A stretch of 64,000 nucleotides of DNA. Source: Candidatus Omnitrophota bacterium (GTDB taxonomy: Bacteria; Omnitrophota; Gorgyraeia; 2-01-FULL-45-10). The DNA is taken from positions 65,574 to 129,573 of the forward strand of contig JBAZKH010000005.1 in assembly GCA_041650935.1 (NCBI GenBank). Reading direction: 5' to 3'. The notes beneath the pieces are model-generated. The model had not been told where the DNA came from and did not search any database. It worked only from the letters and a program-made list of their open reading frames with translations. Positions 1,817 through 23,348 of this stretch are shown here, piece after piece (position 1 is the first letter of the stretch; each line of letters opens with the position of its first letter). The position numbers and the translations under genes are program-made.

Positions 1817-2113
1817 TTAGGGATGCGGCGTAATTGCAAAAACAACGATTTCGCCCCTGGCTTTTCCATAATAAAAGAAGATGCGAAATGCTGCCGGAGT
1901 ATTCTGCTCGGCATACGCTTCAAAGACCTTTTCTCCGTTTAGACCACACAAAGAAGTATATGGATGCGTTTGTAATCCTGGATGCCGCGGATTGTCCGCT
2001 AGGAGTTTTAATGCTTTGGAAGCCGCCTTGAAACGTTTCTCTAAATGGGCGGAGCGTTTCAACTCTTTTAAGTTTTCTCTTGCTTCAGGAGTAAAACTAA
2101 GGAAGAAACTCAT
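1817..2113 (-). CDS. Putative type II toxin, RelE/ParE-like, 98 aa.
   Basis: Small basic protein. It overlaps the upstream AbrB-type antitoxin gene by 4 bp (ATGA), a typical TA operon arrangement. The motifs FTPEARENLKEL and RIFFYYG..GEIVVFAITPH are reminiscent of the ParE/RelE fold. Confidence 0.4.
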   Translation of the reverse strand: MSFFLSFTPEARENLKELKRSAHLEKRFKAASKALKLLADNPRHPGLQTHPYTSLCGLNGEKVFEAYAEQNTPAAFRIFFYYGKARGEIVVFAITPHP

Positions 2114-2451
2114 AAATCGTTTAAGAAACTTTCCAGATCATCGGCCTTTTCTATCTTGCCTTCTGCCGCCTCTTTTAACCCCCGTCGTATCTTGCCGATA
2201 ACTTCCGAGTTACGATATATCCACGCCTCGTTACTGGGAACCGATACGGCGGGCCGGAGTAATATATCCCCTTCTTTGCCGACAAATACCTGGTAAGAAT
2301 CAATCTTCATCTTACTCATTAAGAGTTTTTGCAACCTTCCCCCCAGCGTTATACGGTGCTTGGAATCGAGTGGCCGGGTATCTACGGGTATAAACACCTC
2401 CCGGATCTCAAAGGTTTGCTTTTTCTTTTGCGCGGCTTTTAATGTCTTCAT
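2110..2451 (-). CDS. AbrB/MazE (SpoVT-AbrB) family antitoxin-like protein, 113 aa.
   Basis: Swapped-hairpin AbrB-like motif DSKHRITLGGRLQKL...VFVGKEGDILLRP. It lies first in a two-gene operon with a small toxin-like ORF. Confidence 0.55.
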   Translation of the reverse strand: MKTLKAAQKKKQTFEIREVFIPVDTRPLDSKHRITLGGRLQKLLMSKMKIDSYQVFVGKEGDILLRPAVSVPSNEAWIYRNSEVIGKIRRGLKEAAEGKIEKADDLESFLNDL

Positions 2452-4315: not shown

Positions 4316-7300
4316 TTACGCGGCGGTTTTGATATACTTTCGTATGATATGATTCACTTCCATGACATGGGCATAATCGACCTGTCTAATCGGCGGTAGG
4401 ATAAAGGCTATCGTCATTACGAATTCACCGATATCGGCTATACGCAGTTCTTCATCGGTTAATTTCCTATTCGCCAAGGATTCAAAAGCACTCCGCAAGC
4501 TTGCAATGCTATTTGTATGAAGTGCCCTCATTGCTCGCATTATGCCTTCGACCTGAACGGGTTCTTTGCACCGCTCAAAAGCCATGGCCTTTATGTCTGC
4601 TCCTAACTCTTTTGCCAGGTTGCTACCAAGTATCGCCCTGACTTCATCTGTACTTGGACAGGCAACACCGAATTCGAATTTATAATTTTTAAAATCGTTG
4701 CCATACTCGGCACGATAATAATCTAGCGTCTTCTGCATCTTAATACGTACCTTGTCCACAAAATTGCCCGGGCCATCCCCTGCTAAACGAACTATCTTCT
4801 CGCTATAGTCTCTACGCCTCATGTCAAATTCGACATTTGTCAGGATTGGCCTTTGCGCTTCTGGTATTATAGAATCTGTAATAATATCGCAACGTATCGT
4901 GTTATTAGCAATGACAGGGGTATTTTGAAGATTCTCGGCATGAATCTTGTCCGCATCGGCCTTATCCAAATCGGAATCGGCTTCTTCTTGCGGTGATAAA
5001 GTCCTGGCGGCGAGCTTTTCCCGCAATTTCGCTATGCCTTCGCCTTGTGTGCTTTGACGAACAGGGGCTACATCGGCCTGTCCCGTTTGCTGCCGGGTCG
5101 AAGATGTGGCTTCACTTTTTGCCGGCGTACCGCTACTGGATAAGACTTCGCTTAAACCCAAGGGTTGGTCGGATATGGTTATGGTTTTAGACAGCACACT
5201 ATTCGAGTCACGCAACTTCTGTGCTAATTGCCGTAATGCCCGAGAAGATTCTTCTGGTTGAGGTATGGCTGCGCGTAATTCGAGGCGGTGGGCATAGGCC
5301 TCTCTTCTTTCCACAGAGCATTGTCTTAACTCATCATCTAAATAGCGTAAAAACCATTTATCATCTTTTGGCTGATAGATCGCTATGTCAGACCTGCGAG
5401 ATAATATTTCCAGTGCACGCCAAAATATAATCATATCTTTATTCCATTCGGGAAAATATTGATAGAGGTCCTCACAACCCTTTGTAGGAGAAAGAAAGGA
5501 TTCTCTTAAGTCGCGAACTGGTCTTTTATTTATACTGGTTATATCATGCATATATACATCTGCAAGTCGCAAAACTTCTTCTTCTGGCAAAGCATATACC
5601 TCGTCTATTTCCTCGGTTGATATACAATCTTCGCCGGACAGAAATTTCCTTAACCAAACCAAGTAATCTTGAAGTTCTTGGGGTTCCCATAAAAATCCTT
5701 CATAGTAACATTTCACCCATGACGCATTTAATATAGCTTCTGTTATCTTTTTGCGCTTTGCGGTCTCGTCCCTATTTGCCGCTGCGCCACCGGATGCGGA
5801 CGCAACCGCATTAAACTCTTTTAGTGCCTCGCCGCTCATTGCTTCGGTAACGGCACGGCAGATCTCGGCATGGTACGGCATTGCGGTAAGACTTGCTATA
5901 AATTCTTTAAGAGTATATACGCTGGCTTCTATGCTTCCTCTTGCCAATCCTGCGATACGAACTATTTCTGCCCGTTGTTCATCTTTTTCGAGTTTCGAGG
6001 CTTCCCGAATCAGATTCTGAATAATATCTATTGGATATCCGCCACCTAAATCTTTTGGCAACGGCTTTAGTTCTTTGCCTTCCGCAACTAACAAAACCGG
6101 AGCGGATTCAATCGTCCTTATGATATTATTGACATACATCTCTAGCCCCGTCAAAGATACTCCTTTTACCTGTCCTCTTCTTATCGCATAACCATAATTA
6201 GCCGCTATATGTGGAAACAAATTCATAAATTCGTAATCACATGAACCGACGGAGGTAACTCTTGACAGATTATTTTTTTCTAATGTGCCACTATAAGGCT
6301 TCGCTGTAAAGAAACAATAATAGGCGGGTTGCCCGAAACCAACATTTTGTAGCAATAAATCGATAGCGTATCTTTTAGTACCGGTTCCGATGTAATCGTC
6401 CACAACGATGAATTTCTTCGATTTAATCTCATTGAAAGTTCGATTGTCAAGGCCCATAACCTGCCGTAGTTTTTCATTTTGAGCTGATGCAGTCAAGCCT
6501 CCTCCTAGCAATGCTCTCTTGTCATCGTGATTAACAAGATAGATTAGCGGCATATTTTTGTTGCCATAAAGATGTTTCCATGCTGTTTCCAAAAGCATCG
6601 TTGGAAGCACTGCGCTGTCGCCAAAGAGTAAAATTGTACCGAACCCATTATCGTGAATCATTCTCGCAATTTCAATCGACACCGTAGCTATAGTTTCCGC
6701 CTCCCGCATGTCTTTGGTGATATTTTGCTGGACAAGCGGAGTGCCGGACTTACAGCGATTTATGTTAAAATCCCTGCTTTCCCAGTGGCCTGCTGTCCAG
6801 AAAAATGTGAAAACATTGACATCTTTCGGTAGGACGGCTTCATGGCGACCTGCTGTATTCTCGATTAACGGAATCATTCGACAATTATTCCAATGACCAA
6901 AATCGTCTTTTATACCTGCCCATACAAATCCCGGCGCCCCTTTAGATGGCTCTCCTACGGTCACCCGCACTCTATCTTCGGGGCCTATATCTAATACCTT
7001 CCCGCTTTCGAATGTCCAGACAACATCTTTTCCTTCGAGTTGAGGTTGGCTCTCCAATGGAGTACCTTTAAATTCAGGATGCTCGCGAAGCTTACCGGTT
7101 AAAAAGACTAAGTCGTTCAATAATATCGATGTACCACCATGCTTAGTATTAAAGATACGCTGCTCCTTTGATGGTTTGCTATAAAACCCTTCTGTCATAT
7201 TACCGGACATCATTAGCCCTATCTCACTGTTTGCAAGATCCCGTCCAGCATTTACCGCTATAGGTATGCCAGGCATTCCTATAACATTACCGTCATTAAG

Positions 7301-9241
7301 TCGTTCATCATATCTGTCACCATAGAATGCGACTAAGGAGACCTTTGAATTTAAATGCTCAGCCAACCACACTAACGCACTGCCTTTTGTTCCGTAATTA
7401 TCTTCATGTATCAGTCTGTAACCCCGGGTATCTTCATATTCATAAATGCGTTTCTCTTTGAAGAATTTATCCCGAGCAGCTAATATCAAATAGATATGGC
7501 TCAGCAAATATGATTTATGCAGTTTGTGAAGTTTATTGGCAAGATGATCGAGCGCCCTCCAGTAAAATGTCTCTTTTGTCGCGAGAGTATCGAAAGCAAT
7601 ATAACCGCCTTCTTCAAGATAAGCTATGATAGCGTTTACAATAGGCTCGTTTTCTTTATCACTCATTAAGCTTGTAATAGATATCGTCGTCTCATCCATA
7701 TCGAGTCCTAACAGCGGGGCACGCTTATCACGGCTTAGAATATGGTTGAGTCTCTCTTCAAGTACCTTTATCCTATCATCTTTAGTAGCGCCGCTGGATG
7801 CGGATGAACGAGTCGCTTGCTGCGCATTTAATTCGGCATAGCTTATAGGAGGTTTCGGAATAGGCAATGGATTTTCATCCGATGGCGTATCTTCAGGCTG
7901 GTCAGGCTTATAATTGTGCCGTCCAGACGGTGGCTCAGCACCGGGTAGTTTCGGACCGGGTAAACGTTTTGCGTGGGCTTCACCTCTCGCCATTACGCCT
8001 GGATTTTGCGATGCGACTGGGGCGGAGCTATTAGCTCCGGTAAATAATTCTCCATTCTCTGCTGTAGCGAGAAGTTTTTCATATCGATCTATTATTGGCT
8101 TAAATGTTACACCTTTATATCTATGTTTTATCTGTTCAAAATCCGCGCCTCTTCTGGATGCGATAATATCTTCCAAGCAACCTAAGTCTCTGGCAAATTT
8201 CAATTCTTCTTCGATTATTTCTAGGCACGCATGATGAAAGACATATTCAAATTTCAAATCACATATTTCATTGTCATAACATAACAATTCCAAAAATTCA
8301 TGCAATACACCGCAAATCATTTGCCTATTCCCTGTACGTTCTCTCAATAGAGTAAACGCAAGTGGTGAATATATAATATATACACCGGGTCCCCATATCC
8401 CTAACTTTTTTAAATCGTCTCTCGTTTGGCCATCAGAGATCCATTCATCGTATACTTTGCGCGGGATGTTAATTACTCCGTCTCCGATATTAAAATATTT
8501 ATTTGCGATACCTAATAGCTCATAGTCCGGAATTAAAACCGTGCCTTCCACTTTTAGTTCACTGGCCATATCTTCTAAAAATTCTATCGGGTCGCTAAGA
8601 TATATCGATTTTTTTGCATTCATTAATTTGTGATATGTGTTCCAAACAAGATCGCGGACTTTGGAAAACTTTTCCTTATAATCTTCCTCTGTTTGTGTTT
8701 TGTCAGGATTAACAAACCACACCCCTTCAAGTCCGGGGCACGAGAGATGGGCTATGTCTGCATCCGTTTTGATCTCAAAATTTCTTAGCTCTTCCAGATC
8801 CTGTGGAGTAAAATCAGCATAATCTCTGAGAAGTAACGCTTTTACCTGTTTGCCTTCCTTCTTAAAATTAAATGTGGCGATTGCCCATTTTTTCCCACTA
8901 GTTAAGCTACCTTTTTCAATACTTGCACCTATCTCAACTTCGCCAGCAGGAAAACATGTCTTATTCAATCTTGCAATTTGACCTTCTCTCACGTCTCCAG
9001 CTATGAATAGATTGCGCAATTCAACCGCCGCATAAGACGCAGTAAAGCCTGTACGGAAATCCATGCCCCACTTATCGAAGAATGGCTTGGATCTTAATTG
9101 TGCCGCAAGGGTAGTAGTGTTAGAAGAAGTGTAGCCGGAGGAAGGTTGTGCCCACGCAAGATCATTGACCAGAAATGTACACACTATGGCTATCGTTATA
9201 GCTTTAAATAATATGCTATATCTATTTTTATATACAAACAT
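4316..9241 (-). CDS. Giant (1641 aa) secreted multidomain protein with a HAD-like phosphatase module and a type I phosphoribosyltransferase-like module.
   Basis: N-terminal signal peptide. A Pro-rich linker precedes the HAD motif I LGLDMDETTI and motif IV-like FYGDRYDERLNDGNV. The PRPP-binding-loop-like FIVVDDYIGTGTKRY is present. It is a long uninterrupted ORF in AT-rich DNA. Confidence 0.8.
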   Translation of the reverse strand: MFVYKNRYSILFKAITIAIVCTFLVNDLAWAQPSSGYTSSNTTTLAAQLRSKPFFDKWGMDFRTGFTASYAAVELRNLFIAGDVREGQIARLNKTCFPAGEVEIGASIEKGSLTSGKKWAIATFNFKKEGKQVKALLLRDYADFTPQDLEELRNFEIKTDADIAHLSCPGLEGVWFVNPDKTQTEEDYKEKFSKVRDLVWNTYHKLMNAKKSIYLSDPIEFLEDMASELKVEGTVLIPDYELLGIANKYFNIGDGVINIPRKVYDEWISDGQTRDDLKKLGIWGPGVYIIYSPLAFTLLRERTGNRQMICGVLHEFLELLCYDNEICDLKFEYVFHHACLEIIEEELKFARDLGCLEDIIASRRGADFEQIKHRYKGVTFKPIIDRYEKLLATAENGELFTGANSSAPVASQNPGVMARGEAHAKRLPGPKLPGAEPPSGRHNYKPDQPEDTPSDENPLPIPKPPISYAELNAQQATRSSASSGATKDDRIKVLEERLNHILSRDKRAPLLGLDMDETTISITSLMSDKENEPIVNAIIAYLEEGGYIAFDTLATKETFYWRALDHLANKLHKLHKSYLLSHIYLILAARDKFFKEKRIYEYEDTRGYRLIHEDNYGTKGSALVWLAEHLNSKVSLVAFYGDRYDERLNDGNVIGMPGIPIAVNAGRDLANSEIGLMMSGNMTEGFYSKPSKEQRIFNTKHGGTSILLNDLVFLTGKLREHPEFKGTPLESQPQLEGKDVVWTFESGKVLDIGPEDRVRVTVGEPSKGAPGFVWAGIKDDFGHWNNCRMIPLIENTAGRHEAVLPKDVNVFTFFWTAGHWESRDFNINRCKSGTPLVQQNITKDMREAETIATVSIEIARMIHDNGFGTILLFGDSAVLPTMLLETAWKHLYGNKNMPLIYLVNHDDKRALLGGGLTASAQNEKLRQVMGLDNRTFNEIKSKKFIVVDDYIGTGTKRYAIDLLLQNVGFGQPAYYCFFTAKPYSGTLEKNNLSRVTSVGSCDYEFMNLFPHIAANYGYAIRRGQVKGVSLTGLEMYVNNIIRTIESAPVLLVAEGKELKPLPKDLGGGYPIDIIQNLIREASKLEKDEQRAEIVRIAGLARGSIEASVYTLKEFIASLTAMPYHAEICRAVTEAMSGEALKEFNAVASASGGAAANRDETAKRKKITEAILNASWVKCYYEGFLWEPQELQDYLVWLRKFLSGEDCISTEEIDEVYALPEEEVLRLADVYMHDITSINKRPVRDLRESFLSPTKGCEDLYQYFPEWNKDMIIFWRALEILSRRSDIAIYQPKDDKWFLRYLDDELRQCSVERREAYAHRLELRAAIPQPEESSRALRQLAQKLRDSNSVLSKTITISDQPLGLSEVLSSSGTPAKSEATSSTRQQTGQADVAPVRQSTQGEGIAKLREKLAARTLSPQEEADSDLDKADADKIHAENLQNTPVIANNTIRCDIITDSIIPEAQRPILTNVEFDMRRRDYSEKIVRLAGDGPGNFVDKVRIKMQKTLDYYRAEYGNDFKNYKFEFGVACPSTDEVRAILGSNLAKELGADIKAMAFERCKEPVQVEGIMRAMRALHTNSIASLRSAFESLANRKLTDEELRIADIGEFVMTIAFILPPIRQVDYAHVMEVNHIIRKYIKTAA

Positions 9242-9337
9242 GGTAGAAAATTATACCATGAAATATGTTAAGTCAATAGAAAGATATCTACATTTTTGAA
9301 TTCCTAATGCTTTTGAATTATTCACTTCATCAGTGCA

Positions 9338-9775
9338 CTATTTATATAGCGCTTCATAGATAAGCGCGTCATTTTCGTGGGCGGCTTCCACTTGATCAAG
9401 GCTTTGCTCTTGTCTTTCCCTGGCAAGTTCCTTCTTTAGATAATCAATAATGAATCCGTCTATTCTTTTCCATACATAAGAGCTAAAACGGACGGGCTTG
9501 GGGTTACCATGCTTGTCTTTATATCGGAGGTTATAGGTTTGAATCTTATCGTACAAGATAAATACCATCTGAGAGAGAATGTCTTCGCTGAAACGATCAC
9601 GATAAATCGGGAATATTATCTTGTGAATTCGAAAAAGGACAAATCCTATATGCCGCAGGATAAGCTCATTGGCCTTGCCTTTATCACCCTTTTTTGCCTG
9701 GGCAATGAGGCGTCTTTCTTCCTCAAGAGAAAGCTTTTGATATTTAGGGATAGCCGTACGATAGGTTTCGAACAT
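9338..9775 (-). CDS. Sigma-70 region-2-only protein (sigma-factor-like, lacking regions 3 and 4).
   Basis: LSLEEERRLIAQAKKGDKGKANELILRHIGFVLFRIHK matches sigma-70 regions 1.2/2.1-2.2. FSSYVWKRIDGFIIDYLKK matches region 2.4. The protein is only 145 aa. It lies immediately upstream of the giant gene on the same strand. Confidence 0.55.
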   Translation of the reverse strand: MFETYRTAIPKYQKLSLEEERRLIAQAKKGDKGKANELILRHIGFVLFRIHKIIFPIYRDRFSEDILSQMVFILYDKIQTYNLRYKDKHGNPKPVRFSSYVWKRIDGFIIDYLKKELARERQEQSLDQVEAAHENDALIYEALYK

Positions 9776-9857
9776 GGCGGTATATTATACAGGCCAAATA
9801 CTCGAAACCAAATTAAAAATAATGAGATTCTTTGCTTGAAGACGGGCAATAAATTTT

Positions 9858-9903
9858 GGCGGCAAAAAAGAGGCATCGGTTATATGCTAACCAATGCCTC
9901 TTT
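9858..9903 (-). terminator. Rho-independent terminator-like hairpin plus T-run, downstream of tRNA-Tyr.
   Basis: On the minus strand, aaaagaggcattggttagcatataaccgatgcctctttt is followed by ttttttgcc. The stem is about 14 bp with one mismatch. Confidence 0.5.
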
Positions 9904-9962
9904 TGACTTCTTAGCAACCCTCTTACTTAGGTCTAAAACCACTATTTCGCACAAGTCTTTGA
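9866..9962. repeat. Direct-repeat copy 2 (partner of 1576-1669).
   Basis: Manual alignment. It lies immediately 3' of tRNA-Tyr. Confidence 0.7.
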
Positions 9963-9994
9963 TGTCACAATAATTAAAAATACTTGAGTAAAGT

Positions 9995-10080
9995 TGGTGG
10001 TGAGGGATGGATTCGAACCATCGAAGGCTTGCGCCGCCAGATTTACAGTCTGGTCCATTTGGCCGCTATGGTACCTCACC
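9995..10080 (-). tRNA. tRNA-Tyr (anticodon GTA), type II with a long variable arm.
   Basis: Reverse complement is GGTGAGGTACCATAGCGGCCAAATGGACCAGACTGTAAATCTGGCGGCGCAAGCCTTCGATGGTTCGAATCCATCCCTCACCACCA. Acceptor stem is GGTGAGG/CCTCACC. The anticodon loop is CTGTAAA. The T-loop is GGTTCGAATCC and CCA is encoded. Confidence 0.9.
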
Positions 10081-10202
10081 ATATTGTTGACTAAAACGGA
10101 GTTAGAATTTCAAATAACAAATTCCAAATGTCAAAAATTCAAACATGGAACTTATCCTACGAAGCCCTACAGTTATCTAAGCGCCTTAAGGGCAAAGTAG
10201 GA

Positions 10203-10252
10203 TGGAGCTAGCAGAGGGGATCGAACCCCCGACCTATGGTTTACAAAACCCC
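10203..10252 (-). pseudogene. 3' half of a split tRNA-Thr(TGT): anticodon loop and 3' stem, variable loop, T-arm, acceptor 3' strand and CCA.
   Basis: Reverse complement is GGGGTTTTGTAAACCATAGGTCGGGGGTTCGATCCCCTCTGCTAGCTCCA. No matching 5' acceptor or D-arm is adjacent. The matching 5' half lies at 11758-11795. Confidence 0.55.
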
Positions 10253-10360
10253 TGCTCCGCTAACCGTATTTGCAATTTTCTCGTCGGAAGACTGAAAACT
10301 ACCTACAACCCACCTCCGTTTGTGGCGCTAATCTGAAAAATATCATTACTTTAAGTAACC

Positions 10361-10705
10361 CTATGCAAATTGAACGCGCCTTTTGGGATGAATCAAGCGC
10401 TCAAGCCTGTGCCTAATAGTACTGTTAAGAGGAATGGCTTGCATTTTAACCGTATAGCCGATAAAAAGCAATACCTTTTCGAGGGTAGAAATACTGCTGA
10501 ATTCACCGTTTTCAATCTTCGAAATATGCTGCTGGGTTACCCCCACCTTATCGGCTAACTGTTTCTGGCTGAGTTTATTTTTAACCCGATATTCGATAAT
10601 CCGTTTTACGATCTTGAGTTTTTGTTCCTCAAGCTCATAAAGCTCCTTAAAATAAGGGTCTTTCAACTTTTCTTTTAAGTGCTCATCTACTTTTTGTAGT
10701 TTCAT
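10361..10705 (-). CDS. higA: XRE-family HTH antitoxin (HigA-like).
   Basis: HTH motif LSQKQLADKVGVTQQHISKIENGE. It lies directly downstream of a HigB/Gp49-like toxin gene. Confidence 0.7.
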   Translation of the reverse strand: MKLQKVDEHLKEKLKDPYFKELYELEEQKLKIVKRIIEYRVKNKLSQKQLADKVGVTQQHISKIENGEFSSISTLEKVLLFIGYTVKMQAIPLNSTIRHRLERLIHPKRRVQFA

Positions 10706-10719
10706 ATTAATCGTCTCCC

Positions 10720-11085
10720 TTATTGTCTACTTAAAAAATCGTTCCTTCTTTCGATGGCTATAATTATCTCATTTTTAGGAGTTTTCCGCGCCTTTTTTAT
10801 AAAGCCATTGGTAAATACTGCTTTATCTTCATGATAAAAGAAATACAAAACCCTGACCGCTCCTTCATGTCCTTTGAATCTCAACTCAAAGATGCTATCC
10901 CCAATATATTTGGCATGAGGAAATGGCAATCTATGACCAAATTCCTCCAATAATTCCTTAACAAAGAAAAACTTTCTTTGTGATTTAAAATCCAATGAAT
11001 CAACAAATTCTTTTACAGGCGATTTGCCTGATTCTGTAAGGTAATAATAAGTCGCTATTTTAGCCACTAACTCCGTACCCCTCAA
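10720..11085 (-). CDS. higB: RelE/ParE-superfamily toxin, HigB/Gp49-like (PF05973-type).
   Basis: IFELRFKGHEGAVRVLYFFYHEDKAVFTNGFIKKARKTPKNEIIIAIERR is typical of Gp49-like HigB toxins. Toxin-first order with an XRE antitoxin following. Confidence 0.7.
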   Translation of the reverse strand: MRGTELVAKIATYYYLTESGKSPVKEFVDSLDFKSQRKFFFVKELLEEFGHRLPFPHAKYIGDSIFELRFKGHEGAVRVLYFFYHEDKAVFTNGFIKKARKTPKNEIIIAIERRNDFLSRQ

Positions 11086-11146
11086 TATAAAGTATACAAC
11101 TAAATAGTTGTATTGTCAAGACTTATTAGCTTCAAGTACTAGCTGG

Positions 11147-11431
11147 TTAAAGTTGAAGCGTTTTTAAACTTTGTTCGATTAGATCTAAGTTTTTCATATA
11201 ATTGACATCATGTGCAATAAAATATGAAACTTCATAATATGTTGTATCAATTTTTAACAGAATGCACCTACTTTGATATTCCTGCTTTTCCCCTTTATGG
11301 ATAAAACTCATTTCATAAGCAGGATTTCCATTAAATGTAATTTTTCTTTCATGTAAAAGCTGTCCTTTTATGCCGCCGCCTTTTGTAGGTCCAAAATGAA
11401 AAATGCTGACGCAAAAAAATTGTAAATACAA
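11147..11431 (-). CDS. Hypothetical small protein (94 aa).
   Basis: ORF only. AT-rich and lies within the insert. Confidence 0.25.
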   Translation of the reverse strand: MYLQFFCVSIFHFGPTKGGGIKGQLLHERKITFNGNPAYEMSFIHKGEKQEYQSRCILLKIDTTYYEVSYFIAHDVNYMKNLDLIEQSLKTLQL

Positions 11432-11490
11432 TCATGCCTTTCCTTTTCATAATTCTTCTTTTCAGGCGCTCCTCTATATTCAGATTAACT

Positions 11491-11507
11491 AGAGCTGGGG
11501 AGAGGAC
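11491..11507 (-). repeat. 17-nt partial duplicate of the tRNA-Thr 3' end (gagctggggagaggact).
   Basis: Identical to 11529-11545 inside the intact tRNA-Thr and lies 21 nt away from it. Confidence 0.5.
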
Positions 11508-11525
11508 TCGGCCGACTTAAATAAT

Positions 11526-11601
11526 TGGAGCTGGGGAGAGGACTTGAACCTCCAACAGCGTGCTTACAAAGCACGAACTCTACCAGTTGAGTTACCCCAG
11601 C
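11526..11601 (-). tRNA. tRNA-Thr (anticodon TGT), intact.
   Basis: Reverse complement is GCTGGGGTAACTCAACTGGTAGAGTTCGTGCTTTGTAAGCACGCTGTTGGAGGTTCAAGTCCTCTCCCCAGCTCCA. Acceptor stem is GCTGGGG/CCCCAGC. Anticodon stem is CGTGC/GCACG with loop TTTGTAA. Confidence 0.85.
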
Positions 11602-11757
11602 CTAAATTTGTAGCGCTATTTGCTAACAAATAACCCTAAACGCTACCAAATCCGCTAAAAATCAAATTAAAAAAAATTGTCTTAACTTATTGCTACTATT
11701 CGTATTACGTTGACTTTAAATGGGTTACGAAACTACTCAAAAACTACCATAGCATTC

Positions 11758-11795
11758 TTACAAAACCATTGCTCTACCAGCTGAGCTATGCTAGC
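11758..11795 (-). pseudogene. 5' half of the split tRNA-Thr(TGT): acceptor 5' strand, D-arm, anticodon 5' stem and loop.
   Basis: Reverse complement is GCTAGCATAGCTCAGCTGGTAGAGCAATGGTTTTGTAA. GCTAGCA pairs 7/7 with TGCTAGC at 10206-10212. ATGGT pairs 5/5 with ACCAT at 10236-10240. Confidence 0.55.
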
Positions 11796-11858
11796 GCCAA
11801 CATTGTTGCGCATGTCTGGTGTCCCGAGACGCTATCTTCCAACTCCCGCGCCAAGAGA

Positions 11859-12722
11859 CTACCCTAATCTCTTTAACACTTCCGGCAGCTTATCTAAAAG
11901 ATCCGTTGCGATAAGACCCAGCGACCCCTTATCTCTTACTGCCAGGTCCCCCGCCAGGCCGTGAAAGTATGTACCGAGCGCCGCCGCGTCAAAAGGCTCC
12001 ACGCCCTGCGCGACAAATGCGGCTATAATACCTGTGAGCAGATCGCCGACGCCGCCGGACGCCATCCCGGGATTACCGGTCCTGTTTATATAAAATTCAC
12101 CGCGCGGCCCGGCAACAACGGTATTATGTCCTTTCAAAACCAGGACGATATTATACTCACGCGCCGTTTCAAGCGCAACATCTTTTCGGAACCTCTCTAT
12201 CTTCGCTATGCTCTCCCCCGTCAGTCTTGCCAATTCTCCCGGATGAGGAGTGAGCACAAGCGGTCCCCTGGCTTTTTTAAGTTCTCCGGCATAGCCGTCG
12301 AAAGCATTTATCCCGTCGGCGTCGAGGACTATAGGCCTATCCAATTTTGCAACAAGTTTCCTGACTAGCCGCGCCGTTTGGTTATTCCGCGAAAGCCCCG
12401 GGCCGATCGCAAAAGAATTACACCTGCCGGCAAAACGCAAAAGGCCGCCTTCGGCATCTATCCCCAGCGAACGCTCTTTCGTCTCAGGGCAGGACTTCAC
12501 CATGACCTCGGTAAGTTTTGCCGCCATTATGCAATGGAGGCTCTCGGGCACCGCCAGCGTCACGAGTCCGCCGCCTGACCTCACTGCCGCCTGACTCGAT
12601 AAGTACGCCGCGCCCGTATAACCGGCGGACCCGGCAACAACCAGGACGTGCCCAAAATCCGCTTTACTGGAATCAAGCGGCCTAATCGGAAATTTCTTTA
12701 TAAGCTTACCTATCGATATCAT
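11859..12722 (-). CDS. nnrD: ADP-dependent (S)-NAD(P)H-hydrate dehydratase (YjeF C-terminal domain).
   Basis: Carbohydrate-kinase-like YjeF_C fold. Motifs include GPGLS, VLDADGIN and GNPGMASGGVGDLLTG. Confidence 0.8.
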   Translation of the reverse strand: MISIGKLIKKFPIRPLDSSKADFGHVLVVAGSAGYTGAAYLSSQAAVRSGGGLVTLAVPESLHCIMAAKLTEVMVKSCPETKERSLGIDAEGGLLRFAGRCNSFAIGPGLSRNNQTARLVRKLVAKLDRPIVLDADGINAFDGYAGELKKARGPLVLTPHPGELARLTGESIAKIERFRKDVALETAREYNIVLVLKGHNTVVAGPRGEFYINRTGNPGMASGGVGDLLTGIIAAFVAQGVEPFDAAALGTYFHGLAGDLAVRDKGSLGLIATDLLDKLPEVLKRLG

Positions 12723-13105
12723 GCGGCATCTTTTAAAAGTATGACGTTTGCGATTGCGTAATTCCTGGAATGGGAGATGCTAAGCATCACATTGCCGATT
12801 CTCTTCTTATTCTTGAGTTTAAGCGCATCTTTATAAAATCTTATCGTCGGCTTACCCTCGCCGTCATTCATTACCTCTATCTCGGTCCACTTGATGGGAA
12901 ATTTCCGCGGCTCGCCGAACGCCTTGACGATAGCCTCTTTCGCCGCAAACCGCGCCGCAAAATGCTGACACGAAAATCTCTTAGAGTTCGAATATTTTAT
13001 CTCCCTGCAGGTGAATATCTTCTTTAAGAATGAGTCGCCCCATTTGTCTATCGCGTCCTTCATCCTGTAGACTTCTACTATGTCCACGCCGCTTCCAAAG
13101 ATCAT
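12719..13105 (-). CDS. acpS: Holo-[acyl-carrier-protein] synthase.
   Basis: MIFGSGVDIVEV N-terminus and 128 aa length are typical of AcpS. Confidence 0.8.
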   Translation of the reverse strand: MIFGSGVDIVEVYRMKDAIDKWGDSFLKKIFTCREIKYSNSKRFSCQHFAARFAAKEAIVKAFGEPRKFPIKWTEIEVMNDGEGKPTIRFYKDALKLKNKKRIGNVMLSISHSRNYAIANVILLKDAA

Positions 13106-23271: not shown

Positions 23272-23348
23272 TGGTAGCGGGGATAGGATTTGAACCTATG
23301 ACACGCCGGGTATGAGCCGACTGCTCTGCCAGACTGAGCTACCCCGCC
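23272..23348 (-). tRNA. tRNA-Met (anticodon CAT); elongator, initiator or Ile2 identity unresolved.
   Basis: Reverse complement is GGCGGGGTAGCTCAGTCTGGCAGAGCAGTCGGCTCATACCCGGCGTGTCATAGGTTCAAATCCTATCCCCGCTACCA. Confidence 0.85.

Follow-up and report, generated by a model that had tools for sequence, protein, structure and literature searches.

A tRNA-Thr(UGU) gene split in its anticodon loop by a small integrase-less islet that carries higBA and a second tRNA-Thr(UGU) in an Omnitrophota genome

In a 64,000-nucleotide stretch of a Candidatus Omnitrophota genome (contig JBAZKH010000005.1), referred to here as the window, a tRNA-Thr(UGU) gene is found as two halves that are separated in the anticodon loop by an islet of about 1.5 kb. 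The islet contains the toxin-antitoxin (TA) gene pair higBA, a small open reading frame (ORF) and a complete tRNA-Thr(UGU) gene, referred to here as the cargo tRNA. These contents had been proposed in a first-pass annotation made from the letters of the sequence; HigB and HigA are confirmed by Pfam, and the small ORF encodes 94 aa. The features of the locus are collected in Table 1.

The split tRNA-Thr gene and its islet

The orphan 5' half of the resident gene spans the acceptor 5' strand, the D-arm, the anticodon 5' stem and the anticodon loop, after which non-tRNA DNA follows. Direct reading bears out the perfect 5' half described in the first-pass annotation at 11795-11758. The 3' half described at 10252-10203 was right in its sequence but not in its start, as TTTGTAA begins at 10247 and 10252-10248 reads GGGGT. 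When the halves are joined, the resulting 76 nt are called as a canonical tRNA-Thr(tgt) by ARAGORN, and no tRNA is called at either half with its local sequence. In Rfam searches, nothing is found at the left junction, and the 3' half with its local upstream sequence scores 25.5 bits, below the gathering score of 29. This hit is a tRNA-like fold without a D-arm, in which all positions (7/7) of the 5' strand GUUAGCG are paired to UGCUAGC, the 3' strand of the acceptor. A complete local fold of either half, which the first-pass annotation had named as the outcome that would speak against a split gene, was not seen. Judging from its sequence, the resident tRNA-Thr is truly split and dead, and neither junction is predicted to encode a tRNA.

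Both junctions carry the 10-bp core GGTTTTGTAA, which consists of the last 3 nt of the anticodon 5' stem and the 7-nt loop, and no other exact copies of this core are present in the window. With 2 mismatches, the junction repeat reaches 17 nt, GAGCA[AT/GG]GGTTTTGTAA. Three tRNA genes are called by ARAGORN in the window, all on the minus strand: tRNA-Tyr (9995-10080), tRNA-Thr(tgt) (11526-11601) and tRNA-Met (23272-23348). The second of these is the cargo tRNA, and no other tRNA-Thr is called in the window.

Table 1. Features of the split tRNA-Thr(UGU) locus, in the direction of the minus strand.
Feature	Positions	Strand	Basis
Orphan 5' half of the resident tRNA-Thr(UGU), GCTAGCATAGCTCAGCTGGTAGAGCAATGGTTTTGTAA	11758-11795	-	Direct reading; ARAGORN: no call on the half alone
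Left core copy GGTTTTGTAA, attL-type junction	11767-11758	-	1 of only 2 copies in the window
Left arm, shared with the sister islet of L044; GGTAGTTTT at 11748-11740	11715-11757	-	BLAST, local alignment
Complete cargo tRNA-Thr(UGU), CCA encoded, co-oriented with the split gene	11526-11601	-	ARAGORN; Rfam, 63.5 bits
23-nt direct repeat (21/23, 91%) of the cargo tRNA from T-loop to 3' end, 17 nt downstream of it	11486-11508	-	Repeat search
orf94, 94 aa, no Pfam family match	11147-11431	-	ORF list, Pfam
Sigma-70-like promoter TTGACA-17-TATACT overlapping a palindrome, start of the ~765-bp higBA cassette	11091-11121	-	Promoter scan, 11/12 positions
higB toxin, Gp49 (RelE-ParE superfamily), 115 aa	10720-11067	-	PF05973, E = 3.3e-22
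higA antitoxin, XRE-type helix-turn-helix, 114 aa	10361-10705	-	HTH_3, E = 2e-13; HTH_37, E = 6e-9
Right-arm end with degenerate 5'-half relic (~10273-10248), D-arm destroyed	10248-10292	-	Alignment to L044; Rfam
Right core copy GGTTTTGTAA followed by the pristine 3' half with CCA, attR-type junction	10250-10203 (core 10250-10241)	-	Direct reading
3' half with CCA, TTTGTAAACCATAGGTCGGGGGTTCGATCCCCTCTGCTAGCTCCA, from TTTGTAA	10247-10203	-	Direct reading
tRNA-Tyr(GUA), downstream partner of the ancestral Thr-Tyr pair	9995-10080	-	ARAGORN, Rfam

The cargo tRNA lies 156 nt downstream of the break and forms a clean, full cloverleaf with G1-C72, C2-G71 and the anticodon UGU. It was described at first as complete and of unrelated sequence. 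It is complete, but not unrelated: it is identical to the split gene at 48/76 positions (63%) and to the resident tRNA-Thr(UGU) of another Omnitrophota locus, L039, at 61/76 (80%), with most of the differences from the latter in the anticodon stem. The partial duplicate of its 3' end that had also been noticed corresponds to the 23-nt repeat of Table 1, and this repeat looks like an attachment-site (att) scar that was captured along with the tRNA. The cargo tRNA is presumably expressed, possibly by transcription that starts at the native promoter of tRNA-Thr, 156 nt upstream, and reads through. Most likely, it supplies the function of the split gene, the decoding of ACA.

The islet has a GC content of 30-40%, compared to 52-56% on the side of the neighboring gene nnr, and no terminal inverted repeats were found in it by repeat search. 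Its left arm carries the motif TGGTARTTTTT(N5-7)TTTCGTAAYCCATTTAAA. The sequence GGTAGTTTT occurs once near each islet end, with the second copy in the right arm at 10303-10295. It was considered as an arm-type site and rejected, as its count across the window with 1 mismatch equals chance; it is a hint at most. The small ORF, orf94, is probably a frameshifted remnant, since a signal-peptide-like ORF starts from an ATG further upstream in a different frame; it is called as a gene in a Logan contig and not in the contig of the European Nucleotide Archive (ENA). The higBA genes have the layout expected of a type II TA pair, with the toxin gene first, a 14-nt gap, and a promoter and palindrome upstream. 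HigB homologs with 88-90% identity are present in other Omnitrophota.

The higBA pair also behaves as a discrete cassette of ~765 bp (11121-10356), with homology of 79-85% in at least 9 unrelated contexts, including the Omnitrophota contigs L037, L043, L047, L048 and L051-L054. This homology always starts at 11119-11121, at the -35 box, and ends at 10356-10368, at or near the higA stop. Most of these contexts are near a tRNA gene, among them Val-TAC, Val-GAC, Leu-TAA, Lys-TTT and Gly-TCC.

In agreement with the first-pass annotation, an integrase is absent. Using Pfam and the gene tables, no recombinase (Phage_integrase or other) was found in the islet, in the islands at the neighboring tRNA-Tyr or in the flanking 20 kb, and none was found among the 20 integrase-sized ORFs elsewhere in the window, which are housekeeping genes; the 21 kb and 26 kb by which the contig extends beyond the window were not part of this search.

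Uninterrupted relatives and a sister islet

A total of 185,579 species genomes was scanned with the last 24 nt of the 5' half, which resulted in 32 loci. An uninterrupted tRNA-Thr that is 100% identical over 76 nt to the join of the halves is present at L005, L009, L013 and L022, and also at L044, which is far more than chance would give. Each half of the split gene is thereby identical at 38/38 positions to the intact genes of these relatives, and the contiguous gene predicted by the first-pass annotation exists in related genomes. The gene order cdaA-ybbR-pdxJ-acpS-nnr followed by an intact tRNA-Thr(UGU) is conserved at 9 Omnitrophota loci, with Nnr identities of 61-73%. As the gene is intact at these nine syntenic loci, the ancestral tRNA-Thr was contiguous and the 1,507 bp between the core copies are an insertion. 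tRNA-Thr and tRNA-Tyr are adjacent in L005, L013, L022 and L044, and the islet now separates tRNA-Tyr(GUA) of the window from the promoter side of tRNA-Thr.

An apparent insertion of this kind could also be produced by an assembly chimera, in which two organisms are fused via a shared tRNA sequence. The tRNA-Thr is indeed 100% identical across several Omnitrophota species, and de Bruijn forks close to the junctions terminate two contigs of the Logan assembly, L002 and L036. Against this stands, first, that the window, in reverse complement, is a segment of the 112-kb ENA contig ERZ27247363:k141_1980946, which was assembled by MEGAHIT at k=141, far above the 38-nt half. Second, L036 (1,567 nt, SRR8542065) corresponds to window positions 11787-10221 and independently spans both junctions with flanks of exactly 30 nt. 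Third, an identical Nnr and HigB are encoded side by side on a 157-kb contig of an NCBI Omnitrophota metagenome-assembled genome (MAG), as the consecutive proteins MFA5143851.1 and MFA5143850.1, and a homologous left junction occurs in three more assemblies, L044, L045 and L046. A chimera is therefore hardly credible.

The Logan contigs of SRR8542065, built at k=31, break near or inside the tRNA halves, L002 at 11768 and L036 at 11787 and 10221, the latter contig at exactly k-1 from each junction. These forks show that the sample contains other graph paths through the tRNA sequence, which could be either empty sites of this strain or other species that share the identical tRNA. A copy of HigB in the JGI data lies on a contig of 1.2 kb. 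When a closer relative was sought by Nnr, the next Nnr was just 75% identical, and a look-up with a neighboring protein of 145 aa, for a closer relative or a same-species empty site, returned the window's own contig alone.

An islet of the same family is present at the same site in L044 (NCBI GCA_041643075.1; likewise L045 and L046). Its Nnr is 74% identical to that of the window; across 5.8 billion proteins, the nearest relatives other than self reach 74-75%, and this Nnr is one of them. The order in L044 is the nnr end, an orphan 5' half, GGTTTTGTAA, the left arm, the higBA promoter, a higB pseudogene, higA, the right arm, an intact tRNA-Thr and tRNA-Tyr. The orphan half is identical to that of the window at 37/38 positions, with a mutation in the D-stem. 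The crossover site in both is the anticodon loop, a canonical sublocation in tRNA genes (tDNAs) as used for the Islander islands discussed below, and the breakpoint falls at the same nucleotide. The left arms match at 31/36 positions, with a score of 23 compared to 8.2 +/- 1.6 for shuffled sequences (0/2000 shuffles as good), and BLAST between the window and L044 gives 87% identity over 85 nt, the 5' half included. The intact tRNA-Thr of L044 is identical to the join of the window, and the L044 islet has no tRNA gene of its own. The window carries ~600 bp more than L044 between the left arm and higBA. By this arrangement, the element family duplicates the 5' half and not the 3' half, and the tRNA is rebuilt at the downstream junction from the element-borne 5' half. 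The higB pseudogene of L044 (higBA region 9024-9634) has an internal deletion of 164 nt beside an intact higA, which is the usual order of TA decay.

The higBA genes and arms are 83-87% identical between hosts, while the flanking core genes are 72% (L044) and 66% (L039) identical. The islet is thus more conserved than the backbone, which suggests that related islets have spread horizontally and entered this one site in diverged hosts.

The recurrence in L044 also bears on whether a transposon or insertion sequence with a 10-bp target-site duplication, or illegitimate recombination mediated by microhomology, made the insertion. A short direct repeat at both ends and the lack of an integrase would fit such events. 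A transposon was rejected, as neither terminal inverted repeats nor a transposase are present. In addition, the same-nucleotide breakpoint and the left arm recur in a host with 72% backbone identity, and in L044 the repeat comprises all 38 nt of the 5' half and regenerates the gene, as is characteristic of tDNA islands and not of transposition (PMC4383910). This class of events is considered very improbable.

The right end of the window islet does not regenerate the tRNA, and it still resembles an end that could. The 45 nt upstream of the loop in the window align to the flank plus perfect 5' half of L044 with a score of 6.5, compared to -4.3 +/- 2.9 for shuffled sequences (p ~0.001). This homology indicates that the window keeps a degenerate relic of a 5' half, with small deletions, ~10 substitutions and the D-arm lost; it is this same sequence that Rfam folds without a D-arm. 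The first-pass annotation had proposed that the junctions share a core and that recombination took place in the anticodon loop, and both proposals stand, although the right junction keeps this relic in addition. Likewise, its description of a decayed or non-autonomous insertion agrees with the absence of a recombinase and the decay of the relic. It falls short in that more than a 10-bp core is shared, and the islet appears to be a decayed regenerating island of the 5'-fragment type.

The decay is one-sided. About 15 of 28 nt are changed in the element-side 5' part, against 0/66 nt in the host halves (28 + 38; Fisher p = 4e-10), which indicates that the relic was degenerate before arrival and that the integration is recent. 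The alternative is decay in situ, in which an L044-like islet would have rebuilt tRNA-Thr at this site, the cargo tRNA with its scar and orf94 would have been inserted later, and the redundant rebuilt gene would have decayed in place. L044 represents exactly such a regenerating state without a cargo tRNA, the extra ~600 bp of the window lie between the left arm and higBA, and the relic aligns to the 5' half plus its upstream flank, all as this history would have it. However, neutral decay should strike the redundant pieces alike, which is not what the counts above show, and a single patchy recombination or repair event limited to 28 nt would be required. Decay in situ is therefore regarded as unlikely, though it is the most serious competitor.

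A further possibility is that the halves are functional, with their transcripts joined through cis- or trans-splicing, or that they belong to one gene with an intron. The halves are perfectly conserved and co-oriented, and in related genomes the anticodon loop of the neighboring tRNA-Tyr contains a group I intron. On the other hand, no intron family is matched in 9000-13000 by Rfam at E <= 1, in a scan for which the introns of L039 and L009 served as positive control, and tRNA-Tyr of the window and of L044 is intron-free. The 10-bp duplication of exon sequence is not an intron signature, and the complementarity of the flanks, at -14.8 kcal/mol compared to -14.6 +/- 3.3, is equaled by 43% of the shuffles. 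The insert also contains protein genes and a cognate tRNA, and the orphan half of L044 already has a mutated D-stem. Bacteria are not known to have the bulge-helix-bulge splicing endonuclease. Split tRNA genes are well described in the archaea Nanoarchaeum, Caldivirga and Staphylothermus, and integration of mobile elements has been proposed as their cause (PMC3218864, PMC3293823). As in these archaea, the 5' and 3' halves in the window are parted in the region of the anticodon loop. Unlike in archaea, splicing signals, complementary leaders and an archaeal endonuclease are lacking, and the halves are most likely dead. A functional split tRNA has next to no chance of being the right explanation.

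Another islet at the nnr locus is found in L039. Here, tRNA-Thr is followed by 130 nt, a 24-nt fragment of the 3' end, an ORF, higBA (85%) and a perfect 53-nt copy that covers the tRNA from its anticodon loop onward and 9 nt past its 3' end, as in a classical 3'-fragment island. The order of tRNA, short spacer, 3'-end scar, ORF and higBA is common to L039 and the interior of the window islet, and the cargo gene may be a cellular tRNA-Thr that was captured with its att scar from an L039-like locus. No significant similarity was found between the arms of the two islets, neither for the right arm nor for the sequence past the 3' fragment of L039. The L039 islet is therefore best regarded as separate from that of the window, with the higBA cassette in common, and it is not claimed to belong to the same att family.

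Orphan 5' halves that end at the same nucleotide (...GGTTTTGTAA) were also observed outside the Omnitrophota, in a Verrucomicrobia MAG (L023, 2994-3045) and a Thermoleophilaceae MAG (L034, 80-111). In both, non-tRNA sequence follows, and in L023 no tRNA is present within the 8 kb examined. Integration of the 5'-fragment type in the anticodon loop of tRNA-Thr(UGU) may thus be widespread. In IMG/VR and the JGI metagenomes, the junction pattern GGTTTTGTAAGAATGCTATGGTAG and the cargo-tRNA patterns each gave 0 matches, and no relatives of HigB were found in IMG/VR. The 5'-half pattern had a single viral match, L049, which was set aside as a phage tRNA array of the ordinary kind.

Possible origin of the islet and comparison with known systems

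Taken together, the islet is probably an integrase-less element that entered the anticodon loop of tRNA-Thr(UGU) by Campbell-type site-specific integration, whose regenerating arm has decayed and whose cargo tRNA substitutes for the disrupted gene. The Campbell topology is indicated by the presence of the core at the junctions only, the 17-nt imperfect repeat, the lack of terminal inverted repeats and the low GC of the insert. In the proposed order of events, a circular element of the 5'-fragment type would bear a copy of the tRNA 5' half beside its attP core. Integration would orphan the host 5' half upstream, and the element 5' half together with the host 3' half would rebuild the gene downstream, as seen in L044. 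The element would then have captured a whole cellular tRNA-Thr gene, after which selection on the regenerating 5' half would be relaxed, and this half could decay to the ~10-bp core that the recombinase needs. Such a derivative would have integrated fairly recently, as both host halves are free of mutations. The recombinase would have acted in trans or have been lost since, and a tyrosine-type integrase that acts on the anticodon stem-loop is suggested by the sublocation rule cited in PMC4383910. The higBA genes may help to keep the remnant in place. If attL and attR recombined precisely, excision would give back the host gene in the form of the join; an imprecise loss of the islet would cost the host both tRNA-Thr versions. 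The predicted strain-specific empty site is ...CAACAATGTTGGC followed by the intact 76-nt tRNA and TCCTACTTTGCC, and the predicted circular attP is ...GGAGCAGGGGTTTTGTAAGAATGCTATGG.

Several observations weigh against this explanation. A recombinase is present in none of the three islets (window, L044 and L039), which leaves the anatomy of the junctions as the ground for site-specific recombination. The similarity of the relic (p ~0.001) is drawn from 45 nt that allow two alternative alignments. The L039 islet rebuilds its gene with a 3' half and has arms unlike those of the window, by which the 'family' is a mosaic and higBA may be just a promiscuous cassette. No circular or empty-site form of the same strain was seen, and the window-type junction (core plus left arm) has no second copy in the JGI metagenomes and IMG/VR. 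A promoter scan did not reveal a convincing promoter for the cargo tRNA. Finally, 64 kb of the genome are covered, and a second tRNA-Thr(UGU) elsewhere is possible, in which case compensation by the cargo tRNA might not be needed.

Integration of mobile elements into tRNA genes, with the element rebuilding the gene, is a textbook rule. The opposite outcome, in which the gene is destroyed and a cognate tRNA of the element takes over, was shown experimentally only in 2024 and only in actinobacteriophages, as tRNA-dependent lysogeny of Fionnbharth, LeBron and Gaia (Guerrero-Bustamante and Hatfull, mBio 2024, PMC10865867; the Lactobacillus johnsonii prophage Lj965 is cited there as well). In these phages, attP and attB share ~8-17 bp within the tRNA gene, the tRNA is not rebuilt, and the cognate phage tRNA is required, while close phage relatives with a core of ~45 bp rebuild the tRNA and carry no tRNA gene (PMC10865867). 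As this lifestyle is defined there, the element is a temperate phage that is integrated by a tyrosine integrase of its own, and the host tRNA is single-copy and essential. The window islet resembles the former in its core of 10 bp (17 with 2 mismatches), in that no junction rebuilds the tRNA, and in the complete cognate tRNA-Thr(tgt) inside it. It differs in that it is not a phage, with a length of 1.5 kb and no integrase, repressor or structural genes, and in that its host belongs to the Omnitrophota and not to the Actinobacteria. In addition, higBA resides in the islet, the islet family regenerates via the 5' half (with the fragment upstream) and the phages via the 3' half, and a relic of the lost regenerating half is still recognizable in the window. 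The phage tRNA is required for the lysogen, whereas the need for the cargo tRNA is putative.

The evolutionary origin of tRNA-dependent lysogeny was left open in PMC10865867, with the acquisition of a cognate tRNA that relaxes selection on the attP core as one of the listed routes. L044, with a perfect arm and no tRNA, and the window, with a relic arm and a tRNA, form the pattern predicted by this route.

Among the 3,919 islands of Islander, 2,083 are anticodon-centered and a minority of 159 leave a 5' fragment (Hudson, Lau and Williams 2015, PMC4383910; the sublocation rules are those of Williams 2002, as cited there). The islet has in common with such islands the crossover centered on the anticodon loop, the tDNA and displaced fragment that mark the ends, the 5' fragment upstream, and the tandem arrays at hot-spot tDNAs, which are found here at the neighboring tRNA-Tyr. 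In contrast, the window islet has no intact tDNA downstream, which Islander demands and the L044 islet does possess. A tyrosine integrase is absent from the window, L044 and L039 islets, and with 1.5 kb the islet lies below the 2-kb minimum and would be filtered out.

Elements that are flanked by att sites and have no recombination module of their own are known as cis-mobilizable elements (CIMEs), which are described mostly in Firmicutes next to integrative and conjugative elements (ICEberg 2.0, PMC6323972; PMC5704250). The window islet is similar in its att-like ends, its lack of an integrase and its position in an accretion hot spot, and excision in trans by a related integrase would be possible in principle. 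In contrast to CIMEs, no helper element was found for it. Stabilization of islands by TA systems has been described for HipAB in a composite island of Shewanella (PMC8978831). Here too, an island at a tRNA gene contains a type II TA pair, higBA, which is the chief cargo still intact in an element that has shrunk. Unlike with HipAB, stabilization by higBA is conjecture, and the toxin of L044 is already a pseudogene.

Tentatively, and with the odds against it, the islet may even be a live satellite of the Omnitrophota that is mobilized in trans, replaces the tRNA of its target and has dispensed with target regeneration. If so, carrying a whole tRNA-Thr(UGU) would allow entry into any tRNA-Thr(UGU) gene via its anticodon loop, which is universally conserved, no matter which acceptor or T-arm sequence the host has. 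The resident gene would be killed and the host would depend on the tRNA of the element, which would act against imprecise loss on top of addiction to higBA. The series L044, window and L039 would then be a record of regenerating tDNA islands turning tRNA-dependent, and the tRNA-dependent lifestyle known from phages would also exist in an uncultured phylum, in minimal elements that are not viral.

The principle has already been published for phages; the novelty lies in a non-viral, integrase-less case in an uncultured phylum, together with its sister element. The locus provides an example outside phages and cultured phyla, in a minimal form of 1.5 kb without a recombinase. The sister element that regenerates its target and the relic offer direct sequence evidence for a scenario in which the cognate tRNA is captured and the regenerating arm then decays. 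For annotation, this implies that the islet would escape island finders whose requirements are an intact tDNA, an integrase and a length above 2 kb, and that a mobile element can bear the sole gene for an isoacceptor without this being apparent from the tRNA counts of a MAG.

The neighboring tRNA-Tyr and other features of the window

A second hot spot of integration is the tRNA-Tyr(GUA) gene (features at 1575-2822 and 9868-10020). Its 3' end recurs downstream as three fragments in the same orientation (2753-2778, 2562-2581 and 1703-1728), and the 112 nt at 1575-1686 repeat, at 87% identity, what comes after the intact tRNA-Tyr. Together, these copies delimit a tandem array of low-GC islets of ~8 kb without an integrase, which contains a 1,641-aa ORF, an AlbA_2/HATPase_c_4 regulator and a small gene pair. 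The 1,641-aa ORF (4316-9241, minus strand) has no Pfam domain at E <= 0.01 and is preceded by an ORF of 145 aa without a family match. The small genes (113 aa and 98 aa; 1817-2451, minus strand) overlap and have a TA-like layout between tRNA-Tyr fragments, and neither is matched in Pfam.

A group I intron (Rfam Intron_gpI) splits the anticodon loop of the tRNA-Tyr(GUA) beside tRNA-Thr in two related Omnitrophota genomes, L039 (7219-7446, 91.4 bits) and L009 (5276-5496, 88.8 bits). Just after the last tRNA-Tyr fragment of the window, a c-di-GMP-I riboswitch aptamer is found at 1391-1479 on the minus strand, with 56.3 bits compared to a gathering score of 35. The aptamer lies upstream of a giant gene that runs off the start of the window and encodes 2,434 aa on the parent contig.

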